Part shown: positions 18,001 through 23,962 of the stretch, in pieces
How the letters are laid out: each line of letters starts with the position of its first letter
How positions within the stretch are numbered: position 1 is the first letter of the stretch
NCBI GenBank assembly: GCA_963833225.1
Contig: CAWHXD010000019.1
Span: forward strand, 256,001-320,000
Source of the DNA: an uncultured Chloroflexia bacterium
GTDB taxonomy: Bacteria; Chloroflexota; Limnocylindria; Limnocylindrales; CSP1-4
Direction: 5' to 3'
DNA: 64,000 nucleotides
Translations under genes and position numbers: made by a program
The notes under the pieces: generated by a model
What the model was told of the DNA's origin: nothing
Seen by the model: the letters and a program-made list of their open reading frames with translations, nothing else
Database searches by the model: none

Positions 18001-20583
18001 ATGATCATCCGCATGCCGGCCTGGCTGAGGCTGTGGTCCTTCAACGGGCTCCTGGCCGGTCTCGCCGCTCTCCTGTTCTTCGGGTTCCTGGTGGGCCAGG
18101 ATGCCTTCGGCTCGCCCGTGCACGTCCCCTGGTATGTCATGGCGGTGGCGTTCTTTGCCGCGGAGCTCAAGGTCGTCGACGTCCACTTCCGGCGCGAGAA
18201 GCACTCGTTCACGCTGAGCGAGGTTCCCGCGGTCGTCGGGTTCTTCGTCCTGACCCCCTCGGAGTACCTCCTCGCGATGCTGGTCGGGACCAGCTTCGCG
18301 CTCCTCCTCGACCGGCAGTCGCCGCCCAAGTTCGTCTTCAACCTCTCGGCGTACGCGGCGAGCGCGACGGTCGGGCTCACGGTGTTCCGCATCGTGGCAA
18401 CCCCGGGCGGTGCTCCCGATCCGTTCGACTGGGTCGCCGCGTTCGCGGCCACGTCGGCGGCCACGATCGTCATCTCCGGCTCCATCGCGACGGCCATCAC
18501 CGTGTCGGACGGTGCGCCGCAGTTCCAGAAGCTTCCGGAGATGATCCAGTTCGGGCTCCTGGTGGCCATCGCCAACACCAGCCTCGCCCTGCTGGCGGCC
18601 GCCTTCCTGTGGAGCGACCCGCGGCTGCTGTCGCTCCTGGTCGTGCCGCTGGTGGTCGTCTTCCTCGCCTACCGCGCATACGCCTCCGAGCGCGAGAAGC
18701 ACGAGCGGCTGGAGCTCCTCTACCAGTCCAGCCGGATCCTCCAGCACTCGCCCGAGCTGGACTCGGCCCTCGCCGCCCTCCTGGAGAACGCCCGCGAGAT
18801 GTTCCGGGCCGAGCGGGCCGAGATCGTGCTGTGGCCCCGTGATGGCGGCGAGGAGGGCCTGCTGACGGTGGCCCGCCATGACGCGCCACCGGAGGTGATG
18901 CAGCCGGTGATCATGTCCGCGATCGATCCCCTCCACCGGCGCATCGGCCTCGAGCGCCGGGCCTTCCTCCACGTCTCGGCGACCAGGGACCTCGATCCGA
19001 TCCGGCATGCGATGGCGGTCCCGCTGTTCGGCGAGTCGGGCCTGATCGGGTCGATCGTGATCGCCAACCGGCTCACCGAGGCCACGACCTTTGGCATCGC
19101 CGACCTCCGGCTGCTCGAGACGCTGGCCAACCAGTCCGCGGTCGCCCTCGAGAACGGCCAGCTGGAGCAGTCGCTCAGCGAGCTGTCGCGACTCAAAGAG
19201 GAGCTTCGATACCAGGCGTACCACGACTCGCTCACGGGTCTTGCCAACCGGAGCCTGTTCGTCGGCCGGGTTGACCAGGCCCTCACGGGGGCACGCCCCG
19301 GCGAGATGCCGGCGGTGCTGTTCCTCGACCTCGACAACTTCAAGGATGTGAATGACACCCTCGGCCACGCCGCCGGCGACCAGCTCCTCGTGGCCGTGGC
19401 CGAGCGAGTGCGGTCCTGCGTCCGGGCGAGCGACGTTCCGGCGCGGCTCGGCGGCGACGAATTCGCCGTCCTCGTGGATGACGCTCCGGGCCTCGCGCGC
19501 AGCCAGGCGGTGGCCAGGCGCCTGATCGAGTCGCTGGCGACCACCTTCCCCGTCGAGGGCCACGACCTGAAGATCTCGGCCAGCATCGGCATCGCCGCCG
19601 GCCAGGGCGCAGCGCAGGGGCCGGACGACCTGCTCCGCAACGCCGACGTGGCGATGTACACCGCCAAGCAGGCCGGCAAGAACCGGTTCGCGGTGTTCGA
19701 GCCCACCATGCATGCCGCGATCGTGGCCCGTCATGCGCTGTCGAGCGAGCTCTCGCGCGGAATCTCGGACGGCGAGATCGTCGTCTACTTCCAGCCCGTG
19801 ATCACCCTTGCGACGGGCACCACCTACGGCGCCGAGGCCCTCGCGCGCTGGCGGCATCCGGTCCGGGGCATCGTGGAGCCGGACGACTTCATCCCGCTCG
19901 CGGAGGAGAGTGGCGCGATCATCCCGCTCGGAAGGGCTGTCCTGTTCGAGGCCTGCCGCCAGGCGGCGGTCTGGCGAGCGGGAACCGGCGGCCCGCTGAT
20001 CCTGAGCGTCAACCTGTCCGCGGCCCAGCTGGGCCGCGAGGACTTCGTCGACGACCTCAAGGACATCCTCCGCGCGACCGGGCTGTCGGCCAACCGCCTG
20101 GTGCTGGAGATGACCGAGACCGTCATGTTCCATGACACGCAGACCACGATCGCTCGCCTCACCGCCCTCCGGGAGCTGGGGGTGCGGGTCGCGATCGACG
20201 ACTTCGGGACGGGCTACTCGTCGCTTGGCTACCTGCGCCGCTTCCCGGTCGACATCCTCAAGATCGCGAAGGAGTTCATCGTCGGGGCAGGCGGTGGTCC
20301 CGATGGGTGGGCATTCGCGCACTCCATCGTCGCGCTTGGCCGGACGCTCGGGCTTCAGATCATCGCCGAGGGGATCGAAGAGGAGGCCCAGCTGGAGCAG
20401 CTGCGTGAGCTGGGCTGCGAGCTTGGGCAGGGGTTCCTGTTCGCTCGCCCGATGCCCGGCGACGATGTCGCCCGGATCTTCGCCGGCGCGCCGTCGTCGG
20501 GTGGGGACCCGGACAAGGCCGCTTGGGTTGCCGGGTGTCCTTCGACGACAACCGCGCTGGACGTCTCGATAGTCGCGAGGTGA
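18001..20583 (+). CDS. Membrane-sensor/GAF/GGDEF/EAL bifunctional c-di-GMP turnover protein
   Basis: Multi-TM N-terminus, GAF-like segment, [10 protein letters not shown], intact RASD I-site and [34 protein letters not shown]. Start 18001 or 18013. Confidence 0.92.
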
Positions 20584-20587
20584 CCGC

Positions 20588-21169
20588 ATGTTCATGATCT
20601 ACTCGGTGCTCATCGGGCTGGTCGCGGGGGCTGCCGTCGGAGGCCGGCTGAGCGGCCTCGCGACGCTCGAGTTCCGGTGGGCACCCGCGATCATCGCCGG
20701 CCTGCTCATCCAGGTCCTGCTGTTCAGCAACCCGATCGCCGAACGGATCGGCGACCTGGGGCCCGCGGTCTACGTCGGCTCGACGCTGCTGGTGCTCGCC
20801 GCCGTCGCCCGCAATGCCGGCATCCGCGGCATGCCGGTGGTGGTGGTCGGGGCCGCGAGCAACGTCGTCGCGATCCTGGCCAACGGGGGGTTCATGCCCG
20901 CGAGCCAGGGGGCACTCGCGGCCCTCGGCAAGTCGGCGCCCGTCATCTATTCGAACAGCTCCGTGGTCGAACAGCCCGCCCTGTGGCCGCTGACGGACAT
21001 CTTCGCGCTGCCGACCTGGGTGCCCGGAGCCAACATCTTCAGCGTCGGCGACGTCCTGATCGGGATCGGGATCGGGGCCACGATCGTCATGGCGATGCGG
21101 GGCGTGGCGGCCGCCCGGACCGGGGCCGACCCTGGTGAATCGCGAATGGCCGGTGCGCCCGGGCACTGA
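20588..21169 (+). CDS. DUF5317-like membrane protein (candidate LspA-like aspartic peptidase)
   Basis: GGRLSGL, ANGGFMP, LTDIF and IFSVGDVLI motifs recognised as typical of DUF5317; 4 bp after the GGDEF-EAL stop. Confidence 0.8.
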   Translation: MFMIYSVLIGLVAGAAVGGRLSGLATLEFRWAPAIIAGLLIQVLLFSNPIAERIGDLGPAVYVGSTLLVLAAVARNAGIRGMPVVVVGAASNVVAILANGGFMPASQGALAALGKSAPVIYSNSSVVEQPALWPLTDIFALPTWVPGANIFSVGDVLIGIGIGATIVMAMRGVAAARTGADPGESRMAGAPGH

Positions 21170-21204
21170 CCCGACCGGATACCGGGGATCACCCATCCGG
21201 GTGG

Positions 21205-21233
21205 TTGGGACGGCCGGCGGGTCGCCCTATGGT
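21205..21233 (+). promoter_or_regulatory. Candidate sigma70-type promoter for the riboswitch/peptide transcript
   Basis: TTGGGA-N17-TATGGT about 30 nt upstream of the riboswitch. Confidence 0.45.
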
Positions 21234-21264
21234 CGGCGCTGAGGCAAGCACCCTCCATCGAGGA

Positions 21265-21343
21265 CTCCGTCCAGGGCAAACCCGTCGCGAGGCGGGGACG
21301 CAAAGCCAGGGATCTTCTTCGGAAGAACGCCCGGTTGCCGGGG
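21265..21343 (+). ncRNA. c-di-GMP-I (GEMM-I) riboswitch
   Basis: GGGCAAACC-cgtc-GCGA-ggcg-GGGACGCAAAGCC...GGTTGCCG matches the GEMM-I consensus; GNRA loop on P2; P1 ctccg/cgggg; G at the G20-equivalent position favours c-di-GMP over c-GAMP. Confidence 0.9.
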
Positions 21344-21379
21344 CCGAGGTGCGGACACCCTGCTACAGGGAGTGACACT

Positions 21380-21469
21380 GTGAAGGCGAACCTGGCGCGC
21401 TTCACCTGGGCCGTTGCGCTGCTGGCATCGATGGCCCTGGCCATCGGCGCAGGGATGCGGTGGTACTAG
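21380..21469 (+). CDS. 29-aa signal-peptide-like small peptide MKANLARFTWAVALLASMALAIGAGMRWY
   Basis: GTG start 7 nt after AGGGAG; directly downstream of the riboswitch; basic N-region, hydrophobic core, GAGxRW tail. Below the ORF-track cutoff. Confidence 0.75.
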   Translation: MKANLARFTWAVALLASMALAIGAGMRWY

Positions 21470-21474
21470 TCGCC

Positions 21475-21570
21475 ATGGAGCCCATGCTCAAGGCGCAAGC
21501 CTTCCGCGTGCCCATGGTCGGAACCCCTCTCATCGCCACTCTCGCTCCGGAGGCGGGACAGCGCTGGTGA
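21475..21570 (+). CDS. Second small peptide MEPMLKAQAFRVPMVGTPLIATLAPEAGQRW (possible divergent paralog)
   Basis: Begins 5 nt after the first peptide; similar length and the same AG-x-RW C-terminus; alternative ATG at 21484. Confidence 0.5.
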   Translation: MEPMLKAQAFRVPMVGTPLIATLAPEAGQRW

Positions 21571-21844
21571 TCACCGGTCGGGCTTCTGCCCGGCCATCGC
21601 GAGAGGCCGTCGGGGAACCGACGGTCTTCGCCGTTAACGAGCGGCCTCGTGCAGCCACTGCCGGGGTCTCGGCAGGCGCCCCCTATCGGACCGTTGCGGC
21701 CCCGTGGTTGCGCCCGTGAGATCGTGCGGGTATTCTTCGCGGACCCGTCACGGGACGGGATCAACGGAGTCGGGTCGCTTGGACTTCTTCCAGGGTCGCA
21801 GCCGCAGCCGCGTTGCCATCGTCGTGACGGCCGATGGTCGCCGC

Positions 21845-21997
21845 GTGAACGTGCCCCTGCGCGACCTCGAATCCCAGGACGTAACCCCCCTCGCGCTTCT
21901 TCGCTCGCTCCTTGCCGGCCTTGAGAGCCTTGTCGGCCTCCTCATTACCGGCTCCCGGCGGGAGAACGGAGGGACGCGGAGGAGCGGTCGCCACTGA
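21845..21997 (+). CDS. Leu-rich leader peptide of the ilv-leu operon attenuator
   Basis: MNVPLRDLESQDVTPLALLRSLLAGLESLVGLLITG...; clustered Leu codons, five of them CTT (rare at this GC content), followed by a terminator hairpin before ilvB. Start uncertain. Confidence 0.6.
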   Translation: MNVPLRDLESQDVTPLALLRSLLAGLESLVGLLITGSRRENGGTRRSGRH

Positions 21998-22022
21998 GGC
22001 CGCTACCACCGAGAACCAACGG

Positions 22023-22050
22023 GACCCTCGCCGGGCGGCGAGGGTCTTTA
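22023..22050 (+). terminator. Attenuator terminator hairpin upstream of ilvB
   Basis: gaccctcgcc-gggc-ggcgagggtc perfect 10-bp stem followed by TTTA. Confidence 0.7.
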
Positions 22051-22096
22051 CATGTCCGGCGGTCGCGGGGCCGCCGGAGAAGGGACCTGAGCGGAC

Positions 22097-23962
22097 ATGA
22101 CGATCACCAAGGGCGAGCCGCCGGCCACCGGGGCGACGGAGGCGCCGCCGCGTCGCAGTCACGTGCCGGGTGACGGGACGGCGGGTGCGGCGGCGGTCGA
22201 GGATGCGCGCCGGGCCATGCTCCACGAGGTCCGGGGTCGCAAGCGGACCCGGATCGGCGCGGACGCCCTTATGGAGGCACTCATCCTCCAGGGGACGGAC
22301 ACCCTGTTCAGCTACCCGGGCGGCGTCATCCTGCCGATCTACGATGTCCTGGTCGACTACCCGCAGATCCGGCACATCCTCGTCCGCCACGAGCAGGGCG
22401 GGGGGCACGCCGCCGATGGCTACGCCCGCGCAAGCGGCAAGGTCGGCGTGTGCATGGGGACGAGCGGTCCCGGGGCCACCAACCTCGTCACGGCGATCGG
22501 CACCGCCCAGCTGGACTCGGTTCCGATCGTGGCGCTCACCGGCAACGTGCCCGGCGCGCTGATCGGGAAGGACGCGTTCCAGGAGATCGACATCACCGGC
22601 ATCACCCTGCCGATGACCAAGCACAACTACCTGGTCCGGAACGCGGACGACATCCCGCGGGTCGTCGCCGAGGCCTTCTACCTCGCCCGGACCGGCCGGC
22701 CGGGCCCCGTCCACATCGACTTCACCAAGGACGCCCTGCAGCAGGAGACGCGCGCCGAGCACCCCTCCCTCGACGAGGTGATCGCCGGTCTGCCGGGCTT
22801 CCGCCCCACCTTCGAGGGTCACCCCAAGCAGCTCAAGACCGCGGCCCGGGAGATCGCCCAGGCCAAGCGGCCGCTGATCCTCGCCGGGCACGGTGTCCTC
22901 ATCGCCGAGGCTTGGGACGAGCTCAAGGCGTTTGCGGAGAAGGCCCAGATCCCCGTCGCCTGGACCCTGCTCGGCATCGGCTGCATCGACGAGGAGCACC
23001 CGCTGGCCTACGGCTACATGGGCATGCACGGCTGGAAGCACGTCAACCGCGCCATCCAGGCGGCCGACCTGCTGATCGCGATCGGGATGCGCTTTGACGA
23101 CCGGGTCACCGGCAGCGTCAAGACCTACGCCCCCTACGCGCGGATCATCCACGCGGACATCGATCCGGCCGAGATCGGCAAGAACGTCGCCGTCGAGGTC
23201 CCCATCGTGGGCGACGCGAAGAACGTCCTCGCAGGCCTCACTCGGCTGGTCCACGCGGTGGAGCCCGAGGAGCGTTCCGAGTACCTGGCCCAGCTCCGGG
23301 CCTGGCGCGAGGAATCCGAGGCCAGCTCCTGGCACGGCTCGGGCGGCTCCGACAGCGGCGTGCTCACGGCGGACTACGTGGTGGGCCGGATCGGGGACCT
23401 CACGGACCATGTCGGCACCTACGTGGCCGACGTCGGCCAGAACCAGATGTGGCTGGCGCGCTATACGCGGTTCCGGCGGCCACACAGCCACATCAGCTCG
23501 GGCGGCCTGGGCACCATGGGCTACGCCGTGCCGGCCGCGATGGGCGCCGCGCTGGGCAATCCCGCGGCCGAGACTTGGGCCGTGTGCGGTGACGGCGGCT
23601 TCCAGATGACGAGCCAGGAGCTGATGACGCTGGCCGCGGACCGCATCCCGGTCAAGATCGCGCTCCTCGACAACAAGAAGCTGGGCATGATCCGCCAGTG
23701 GCAGGAGATCTTCTACGCGGAGAACTACCACTCCTCGCACCTGCCGGGCCCGGACTTTGCCAAGCTGGCCGACGCCTACGGGATCCCCGCCTTCAAGGCA
23801 ACCCGGACCGACGAGGTGGACGATGCCATCAGGGCCGCACAGGCCGTGGACGGTCCGGCGCTCATCTGGTTCGAGATCGAGCAGGAGCAGAACGTGTACC
23901 CGATCATGCCGGCGGGCAAGGGCCTGTCCGACCTGATCGAGCATCGGGGGCCCGAGGAATGA
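22097..23962 (+). CDS. ilvB: Acetolactate synthase large subunit
   Basis: YPGGVILP, RHEQGGGHAADGYARASG, TSGPGATN, GMHG, RFDDRVTG, GDGGFQMT, GMIRQWQ. Confidence 0.96.
   Translation: MTITKGEPPATGATEAPPRRSHVPGDGTAGAAAVEDARRAMLHEVRGRKRTRIGADALMEALILQGTDTLFSYPGGVILPIYDVLVDYPQIRHILVRHEQGGGHAADGYARASGKVGVCMGTSGPGATNLVTAIGTAQLDSVPIVALTGNVPGALIGKDAFQEIDITGITLPMTKHNYLVRNADDIPRVVAEAFYLARTGRPGPVHIDFTKDALQQETRAEHPSLDEVIAGLPGFRPTFEGHPKQLKTAAREIAQAKRPLILAGHGVLIAEAWDELKAFAEKAQIPVAWTLLGIGCIDEEHPLAYGYMGMHGWKHVNRAIQAADLLIAIGMRFDDRVTGSVKTYAPYARIIHADIDPAEIGKNVAVEVPIVGDAKNVLAGLTRLVHAVEPEERSEYLAQLRAWREESEASSWHGSGGSDSGVLTADYVVGRIGDLTDHVGTYVADVGQNQMWLARYTRFRRPHSHISSGGLGTMGYAVPAAMGAALGNPAAETWAVCGDGGFQMTSQELMTLAADRIPVKIALLDNKKLGMIRQWQEIFYAENYHSSHLPGPDFAKLADAYGIPAFKATRTDEVDDAIRAAQAVDGPALIWFEIEQEQNVYPIMPAGKGLSDLIEHRGPEE

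Follow-up and report, generated by a model that had tools for sequence, protein, structure and literature searches.

A DUF5317 membrane protein encoded beside cyclic di-GMP enzymes and riboswitch-linked micro-peptides in an uncultured Chloroflexia bacterium

The stretch of DNA considered here (the window, 64,000 nucleotides (nt) long, with a G+C content of ~70%) comes from contig CAWHXD010000019.1 of an uncultured Chloroflexia bacterium and carries a gene for a small membrane protein of the family DUF5317. A literature search for the names DUF5317, PF17248 and IPR035168 found no paper using any of them. A preliminary description of the gene, made from the sequence alone, compared its product to signal peptidase II (LspA, peptidase family A8) and pictured it as an intramembrane aspartic peptidase acting on a peptide encoded next door. 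The genomic context of the gene is firmer than the likeness to LspA. In several phyla, DUF5317 proteins are very probably recurrent operon partners of MASE9-like proteins with differing outputs (HD-GYP, GGDEF-EAL, histidine kinase), several of which are enzymes of the second messenger cyclic dimeric guanosine monophosphate (c-di-GMP).

Genes at the locus

The DUF5317 gene and the enzyme gene before it are arranged as follows.

18001-20583, + strand: gene for a membrane-bound GAF-GGDEF-EAL protein (frame open from 17755, likely start ATG 18001)
~18031-18708, + strand: MASE9-like multi-helix membrane domain, recognised with a profile of neighbours' N-terminal domains
18754-19155, + strand: GAF domain (Pfam GAF_3, 46.4 bits)
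19216-19686, + strand: GGDEF domain (Pfam, 156.2 bits)
19747-20451, + strand: EAL domain (Pfam, 246.5 bits)
20588-21169, + strand: DUF5317 gene, an open frame for a protein of 193 amino acids (aa) whose five membrane helices run from an outside N-terminus to an inside C-terminus

The DUF5317 product matches its Pfam family (PF17248) with 87.4 bits (E 1.3e-24, cut-off 25), residues 27-166 covering positions 2-150 of the 151 in the model, and the same family is carried by 120 of the 120 homologues among the matches listed. Its start lies 4 nt past the stop of the GAF-GGDEF-EAL frame (942 codons) and 8 nt downstream of a Shine-Dalgarno-like site, GAGGTG. The protein is a true family member; it spans the membrane with five helices, and its translation directly follows that of the membrane-bound GAF-GGDEF-EAL enzyme. 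The family is widespread, with 2089 representative clusters at E<=0.001, and is present in 48 of 151 sampled genomes of the phylum.

Association with c-di-GMP enzymes

The neighbourhood of the gene was studied in 40 stand-alone DUF5317 loci from the phylum and in 120 loci obtained by a pattern scan of named public contigs (Chloroflexota, Actinomycetota, Bacillota and other phyla), 79 of which hold DUF5317. A gene for a MASE9-like, HD-GYP, GGDEF or EAL protein lies within 600 nt of DUF5317 in 23 of the 40 same-phylum loci and 43 of the 79 public-contig loci; when only loci with at least 1.5 kilobases on both sides are counted, the figures are 19/31 and 16/30. Among 27 clustered neighbour open reading frames (ORFs), 21 carry HD_5 (HD-GYP), 5 carry HisKA with HATPase_c, 3 carry MFS and 3 match Pfam MASE9 (E<=1e-5).

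Most of these neighbours share an N-terminal domain of ~230 aa with about six helices, and the domains are homologous across output types, with E-values down to 1e-30 between a kinase and HD-GYP proteins. Against a profile of 19 such domains, the GGDEF-EAL protein of the window scores 46.1 bits (E 1.9e-16) and its reversed control -6 bits. The Pfam model of MASE9 (PF20972) recognises three of five isolated N-terminal domains below threshold, at 17.4-21.9 against 24.3 bits. No equivalent of the GGDEF, EAL, GAF or N-terminal parts of this protein was detected by tblastn in any of the 40 same-phylum loci, where the partner is an HD-GYP protein or a kinase.

The association extends to fusions. The genome has a second DUF5317 copy (L065:1932-4127(-), G000:C5), which stands at the N-terminal end of a 732-aa protein, fused to an MFS_1/MFS_3 transporter, and is likewise preceded by a MASE9-like HD-GYP gene (L065:4165-5703(-)). 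Other natural fusions join DUF5317 to GAF-GGDEF (protein P0159) and to MFS in both orders, and gene strings of HD-GYP, MFS and DUF5317 recur. In the sister family of the class, frames of 660-753 aa that match DUF5317 are also seen repeatedly; the MFS part was checked in the 732-aa protein. In three loci (L084, L086 and L089, from genomes G017, G128 and G137), HD-GYP and MFS_3 stand in a single frame of 852-874 codons directly upstream of DUF5317, which may be a MASE9-like/HD-GYP/MFS fusion or two genes that share a frame.

A riboswitch and two micro-peptides downstream

Behind the DUF5317 gene lie three small elements.

21266-21343, + strand: class-I c-di-GMP riboswitch aptamer, GGC variant (Rfam RF03167, full-length model, 62.8 bits against a gathering score of 59)
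21380-21469, + strand: small ORF 1, 29 aa (GTG start most likely, stop 21467-21469, Shine-Dalgarno-like GGGAG upstream)
21484-21570, + strand: small ORF 2, 28 aa from ATG 21484 (start uncertain; GTG 21460 and ATG 21475 are also in frame)

The riboswitch belongs to Rfam clan CL00126 and its match is above the gathering score. The ligand of the GGC variant is uncertain. The LAIGAG peptide mentioned in the preliminary description does exist: it is the product of small ORF 1, with GTG 21380 as the likeliest start and a length of 29 aa. Its basic N-terminus is followed by a single hydrophobic helix, and the sequence closes with ...LAIGAG-MRWY. Small ORF 2 encodes a peptide of another type, which ends in ...EAGQRW; second peptides of the LxLEAGxRW type stand in tandem with a first one in L091, L215, L231 and L250, and are the sole copy in other loci. 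An alignment of eight peptides (small ORF 1 and seven others) shows R7, L15, L20, A24 and W28 to be invariant, and all eight have Shine-Dalgarno-like sites. As a group, the peptides are 28-36 aa long, have a single helix, occur once or twice per locus and end in A-G-x-R/K-W. Since their N-terminus is basic, the conserved R/K-W end would lie outside, on the same side of the membrane as the aspartate pair described below.

The peptides go with DUF5317 rather than with the riboswitch as such. The GGC variant is found in 27 of 61 genomes of the class; six of the 30 riboswitch loci of the class have DUF5317 directly upstream, and an A-G-x-R/K-W peptide is present in 6/6 of these versus 0/24 of the others. 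Within 900 nt downstream on the same strand, such a peptide follows DUF5317 in 16 of 119 loci (17/120 including the window). Control regions of equal size gave 0 on the opposite strand and 0 in both upstream regions, and ~1.0 Mb of distant sequence gave 3. The gene for the small peptide accompanies DUF5317 in a conserved way and did not arise as a chance ORF. In 12 of the 17 peptide loci, a class-I riboswitch stands between DUF5317 and the peptide, 8 of them of the GGC variant and 4 canonical c-di-GMP-I; the set comprises the window, L091 and 10 of 15 further peptide loci (6 GGC variant, 4 canonical).

The possibility that small ORFs 1 and 2 are branched-chain attenuator leaders of the downstream ilvB gene was considered and rejected, given that the same peptides occur without a downstream ilvB (L091) and that their C-terminal motif is conserved and they come with ribosome-binding sites of their own. 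The minimum free energy fold of 21255-21400 was no more stable than that of shuffled sequences (z -0.13), and neither promoters nor terminators were found on scanning 20400-22200. A second c-di-GMP-I-GGC riboswitch in the same genome (G000:C8:994006-994087(-), locus L108, 69 bits) is followed by a 31-aa hydrophobic ORF of another type, without the G-x-RW end, a close copy of which follows a riboswitch in L112. Small hydrophobic ORFs may be a common target of the GGC variant.

The conserved acidic site and its place in the membrane

Conservation was assessed with an alignment of 85 diverse relatives and with 320 sequences aligned to the family profile. The two strings quoted in the preliminary description, ASNVVAILANGG and PLTDIFALPTWVPGANIFSVGDVLIGIG, are both present in the translation of 20588-21169(+), and the two aspartates to which it drew attention are indeed 18 residues apart, D137 (nt 20996-20998) and D155 (nt 21050-21052). 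Their conservation, which had been suggested as a check, is nearly complete: among the 320 family sequences, 291 of the 295 rows that cover the first position have Asp there, as do 287 of 288 at the second. The spacing of 18 is kept in 261 of 283 rows. The observation of the two aspartates is real and far from chance.

They are not alone, since G88, N92, N99, G101, M103, P104, S152 and G154 are as fixed as the aspartates themselves, and Q42, Y62, S65, N76, N123 and N149 are strongly conserved (S152 in 283/288 rows, N149 in 242/288 and N123 in 259/305). The AlphaFold2 model (mean predicted local distance difference test score 92.4, predicted template-modelling score 0.86) has helices at residues 2-16, 32-45, 48-74, 82-98 and 153-179, with short strands within the 99-152 loop; D137 falls in one of these strands, in the last outer loop, and D155 at the start of the last helix. 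By the positive-inside rule, the counts of lysine plus arginine per loop make loop 1, loop 3 and the C-terminal tail cytoplasmic, which is why the N-terminus is placed outside. The same counts would put the long loop, both aspartates and most of the fixed polar residues in or just beyond the outer leaflet. About nine near-invariant polar residues, Q42, Y62, S65, N92, N99, D137, N149, S152 and D155, all fall in the outer half of the membrane.

Relation to signal peptidase II

A canonical LspA is encoded elsewhere in the genome and scores 115.3 bits with Pfam A8 (PF01252, gathering score 25 bits). In an alignment of 34 LspA sequences from the same phylum, the invariant residues are D21, K25, N52, G54, F57, G101, N105, R109, V115, D117, N132, A134 and D135. 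The motifs that the preliminary description gave for LspA are correct (N105, R109, D117, N132, A134 and D135 are all invariant), and its spacing of roughly 18-19 residues is not constant: the two aspartates are 14 apart in 18 sequences, 18 apart in 14, and 20 and 26 apart once each. With a range of 14 to 26 in LspA itself, the shared spacing of 18 is therefore of little weight.

Sequence searches did not connect the two families. Pfam A8 has no match in the DUF5317 protein of the window at E<=1, and its threshold was never reached in the 85 relatives, only four of which match at all (best E 0.35); Peptidase_A8 is nonetheless the most recurrent sub-threshold Pfam family among the 85, though in those 4 only. 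Run on 41 genomes at E<=0.001, the A8 model picked up no DUF5317 gene, even though DUF5317 is present in several of them, G001, G003, G007, G009, G012, G017, G020, G022, G025 and G026 being examples. BLASTP of the protein against the LspA of its own genome returned nothing (best E 4.4), and a profile of the 85 relatives, run against all Protein Data Bank (PDB) sequences, returned two light-harvesting chains (E 0.14-0.15) and no LspA. The alignment of DUF5317 and LspA profiles by hhalign gave probabilities of 2.6% and 3.6%, with a score of 22.0 against 20.6 for the reversed query and 16.7 for the reversed target, a score also reached by 4 of 40 block shuffles.

In structure comparison, Foldseek matched the DUF5317 model to no PDB chain at E<=0.001, the best being a CDP-alcohol phosphotransferase at E 1.1. 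In an exhaustive structural alignment against 48,161 chains, the best match was a designed helical barrel (Z 6.3), and LspA 6ryp was at rank 41 among the best 50 listed, with Z 4.3, a root-mean-square deviation (rmsd) of 3.4 Å, 94 aligned residues and 13% identity. This alignment covers model residues 39-183 and chain residues 55-163. Among the 176 chains listed by Foldseek, 6ryp ranks 11, and its rmsd is the lowest among the matches listed with at least 90 aligned residues; the cluster with 5dir and 9emz was not among the best 50 chains listed in the wide structure search. A second pass through the structure hits brought up no other LspA entry. A Z of 4.3 is within the noise band of unrelated helical bundles. 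The profile and Foldseek comparisons that the preliminary description suggested as a check lend no support to the A8-like relation it proposed: no Pfam A8 match, hhalign alignments no better than shuffled or reversed ones, and no fold match above noise.

Some likeness is left. An LspA profile scores above 5 bits for 40 of 316 DUF5317 sequences (top 10.8) versus 0 of 310 reversed decoys (top 3.4). Every alignment inspected sets FNvAD over FSxGD and VvDF over LtDxF, pairing D117 and D135 of LspA with the two aspartates of DUF5317, and hhalign uses the same register. A weak directional likeness of DUF5317 to the FNxAD/VVDF region of LspA remains, local and possibly convergent. The rest of the LspA site has no equivalent. 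A counterpart of R109 was sought in the DUF5317 loop and no conserved Arg was found there, though N123 is kept; DQxxK and NxGxxF have no counterparts among the conserved columns, where only Q42 is fixed in helix 2. LspA has four membrane helices with both termini inside. DUF5317, according to the AlphaFold2 model and the lysine and arginine counts, has five long helices and an outside N-terminus. The earlier statement of a shared topology holds in that both aspartates flank the last helix on the extracytoplasmic side, as in LspA; the number of helices and the side of the N-terminus differ. As judged from sequences and model, membership of DUF5317 in the LspA (peptidase A8) family is not supported and not demonstrable.

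Three sub-threshold A8 matches came up in other genomes; the two inspected, in L032 and L034, belong to a distinct short LspA-like family and not to DUF5317. These short ORFs of 128-176 aa (L032:851-1381(+), genome G028; L034:1082-1468(+), genome G040; also G016:C163:2019-2225) align with the LspA model over its C-terminal half alone, at sub-threshold E-values of 1e-4 to 7e-4, and bear GN..., GYATDW and LTNVAD motifs. A full LspA is present in the same genomes, and the short ORFs are a possible family of truncated LspA-like paralogues.

Other neighbouring genes

In 17 of 119 loci, the gene right after DUF5317 on the same strand codes for a small protein of the Os1348 family (NHLP clan): L068, L070, L072-L074, L077, L081-L083, L090, L104, L167, L188, L200, L232, L243 and L251. 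NF038399 was matched by 13 of 13 tested proteins of this type, above the cut-off in 3. In at least L068, L072, L074 and L082, the Os1348-family gene stands between DUF5317 and a gene for a cytosolic PAS-(GAF)-HD-GYP protein. Os1348 is described as a helical dimer of unclear function in the available text of its structural report (PMC7726476). Upstream of DUF5317, 16 of 41 phylum-sample loci have a gene for an AAA_16-TPR-BTAD (STAND-type) regulator of ~1100 aa; they include L068, L072-L074, L077, L078, L081-L083 and L085, and the Pfam domains were scanned in L077 only.

Farther downstream in the window, the stretch at ~21700-22000(+), just before ilvB (22097-23962), is conserved in 8-9 loci in more than one reading frame and always lies just upstream of an acetolactate synthase gene. 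It contains a VAIVV run and had no match in Rfam at E<=0.1. Its conservation suggests an RNA or leader element.

Interpretation

The reading favoured here, to which a probability of about 45% can be given, is that DUF5317 serves MASE9-type c-di-GMP enzymes as an accessory membrane subunit that takes part in sensing. Its acidic pocket in the outer leaflet would take up a membrane-embedded ligand, at this locus most likely the peptides encoded alongside, by way of their cationic-aromatic end. The ligand-bound protein would then contact the MASE9-like domain of the c-di-GMP enzyme next to it, helix to helix, and so set how active that enzyme is. The riboswitch would tie the supply of peptide to c-di-GMP, and through this control of the peptide the proposed feedback loop would be closed.

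Several observations weigh against this account. About 40-45% of DUF5317 loci have no c-di-GMP gene within 600 nt and the peptide is found in only 17/120 loci; therefore, a universal ligand would have to be something else in most lineages. The N-terminal domain of the window's own enzyme has no match to Pfam MASE9, its MASE9 likeness resting on a home-built profile, and related genomes are non-independent samples. Two Asp, a Ser and several Asn and Gly are almost never replaced, a pattern that one would sooner expect in a catalytic or ion-binding site than in an adaptor. Fusion to MFS transporters, finally, is out of the ordinary for a module that does nothing but sense.

A less likely but live rival explanation runs as follows: DUF5317 could work like LspA as an intramembrane aspartyl peptidase without belonging to A8, with D137 and D155 as catalytic pair at the outer-leaflet boundary, cutting the Cys-less micro-proteins after the small residues of A-G. 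Either an x-R/K-W peptide of 3-7 residues or the helix, set free by the cut, would serve the MASE9-like enzyme as a signal. In favour of this are the two near-invariant aspartates, in the last outer loop strand and at the start of the last helix; their Asn and Ser neighbours (N123, N149, S152) are conserved, and the strictness of the polar site fits catalysis well. The LspA profile prefers DUF5317 to reversed decoys and superposes both Asp motifs in the register that hhalign also finds, A8 is the most frequent sub-threshold family (4 of 85 relatives), and 6ryp is among the 176 chains listed by Foldseek, with the lowest rmsd for at least 90 residues among the matches listed. The peptides, encoded next door, resemble bare signal peptides with small residues before the conserved site, and a different small protein, of the Os1348 family, follows DUF5317 in 17/119 loci. 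However, all of these similarity measures are within noise, the Arg of LspA R109 and the DQxxK and NxGxxF motifs have no equivalent, the peptide gene is missing from most loci, and a peptidase fused to GAF-GGDEF would be unusual. Os1348 itself, going by the accessible part of its report, is a folded dimer of helices and not an obvious membrane substrate (PMC7726476). Cleavage of the peptide by DUF5317 may occur. The fuller version, in which a new peptidase family, convergent with or remotely related to LspA, would cut riboswitch-controlled Cys-free micro-proteins at A-G|x-R/K-W and the adjacent MASE9-like domain would read the product within the membrane, making a self-contained peptide/c-di-GMP feedback circuit, is unlikely.

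Also improbable, to a similar degree, is a function that is not directed at peptides at all. DUF5317 might bind or conduct an ion (H+, Na+ or a divalent cation), or modify or bind a lipid of the outer leaflet, and couple to MFS transporters and c-di-GMP enzymes, the peptides being a lineage-specific addition. A cluster of invariant Asn, Asp, Ser and Gln within the membrane is typical of ion sites, most DUF5317 loci lack peptides, and the MFS fusions in either order and the HD-GYP/MFS/DUF5317 strings would be accounted for. The authors who defined MASE9 propose intramembrane ligand binding for that domain in the available text of their preprint (bioRxiv 10.1101/2021.11.05.467447). Against this stand the lack of any above-noise likeness to a known channel, transporter or lipid enzyme (best Foldseek E 1.1) and the tight, exclusive linkage of peptide and DUF5317 where the peptide is present, which needs a separate explanation.

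That DUF5317 is a true, highly divergent member of the LspA lineage is very improbable. In its favour, independent alignments bring the two Asp motifs together in one order and register, the active site faces the same side of the membrane in both families, and the weak 6ryp match spans residues 39-183. Against it, none of the 85 relatives reaches the A8 threshold and the A8 model finds no DUF5317 gene in 41 genomes, the hhalign score (22.0 versus 20.6 for the reversed query) is equalled by 4/40 shuffles, Z 4.3 lies in the band of unrelated helical bundles, the helices are five with the N-terminus out instead of four with it in, and the genome already has a canonical LspA.

The link to MASE9-type enzymes is the first functional handle on DUF5317, and also on MASE9, whose signal is unknown. 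If the Asp pair were catalytic, a new intramembrane protease family tied to second-messenger signaling would follow.

Comparison with known systems

The three-part string of riboswitch, peptide and DUF5317 is described by none of the systems that it resembles in part, namely LspA, the MASE modules, the C. difficile proteins and the MgrB-type peptides. LspA (solved structures 5dir, 6ryo/6ryp and 9emz; the identity of 6ryp as LspA was confirmed) is, like DUF5317, a small integral membrane protein with two extracytoplasmic acidic residues, the first in the final outer loop and the second where the last helix begins. Both proteins have the motif F-[NS]-x-[AG]-D-x-x-I-x-x-G, and a signal-peptide-like candidate substrate is encoded near DUF5317. 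In contrast to LspA, DUF5317 has five helices with the N-terminus out, no significant sequence or fold relation, and no Arg of GNxxDR, DQxxK or NxGxxF; its candidate substrate lacks the lipobox Cys, and its context is c-di-GMP signaling and not lipoprotein maturation. LspA is near to DUF5317 for the geometry of the acidic site only. The GxGD intramembrane aspartyl proteases (presenilin/SPP, prepilin peptidase) offer another parallel, in that the second Asp of DUF5317 stands at a helix start in a near-invariant S-x-G-D, which resembles G-x-G-D, but their number of helices and their spacing are unlike those of DUF5317.

For the peptides, a parallel is found in MgrB and PhoQ, where the pathway's own output governs the synthesis of a tiny protein with a single helix, which feeds back on a membrane sensor. 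The peptides here could likewise act back on a membrane sensor. They differ in being under a riboswitch and not a response regulator, and the module has an extra five-helix protein.

MASE domains are also polytopic membrane modules with conserved intramembrane polar residues, tied to HD-GYP, GGDEF-EAL and histidine-kinase outputs, and in P0159 it is DUF5317 itself that takes the N-terminal sensor position. DUF5317 differs from them in being mostly a separate polypeptide, beside a protein that already has a MASE9-like domain, and in its far stricter conservation. Galperin and Chou defined MASE9 as a membrane-located sensor domain found in HD-GYP and GGDEF-EAL proteins; the text available of their preprint contains 0 occurrences of DUF5317 (bioRxiv 10.1101/2021.11.05.467447).

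The CD1980.2 family of Clostridioides difficile consists, according to the accessible text of the report on it, of small membrane proteins of 58 aa under class-I c-di-GMP riboswitches, with no homologues reported outside the species and with partners unknown there (PMC13724677). As in the window, a class-I riboswitch immediately precedes genes for very small proteins associated with the membrane, which often come in several copies. The peptides described here are shorter (28-36 aa) and come from another phylum, and the two were likened by description, without sequence comparison. The other difference, again as far as that text goes, is a fixed neighbour, DUF5317 with its c-di-GMP enzyme, which suggests a partner. 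The string of riboswitch, peptide and DUF5317 thereby gives a concrete partner hypothesis for riboswitch-controlled micro-proteins, which have just been described in C. difficile without known partners.

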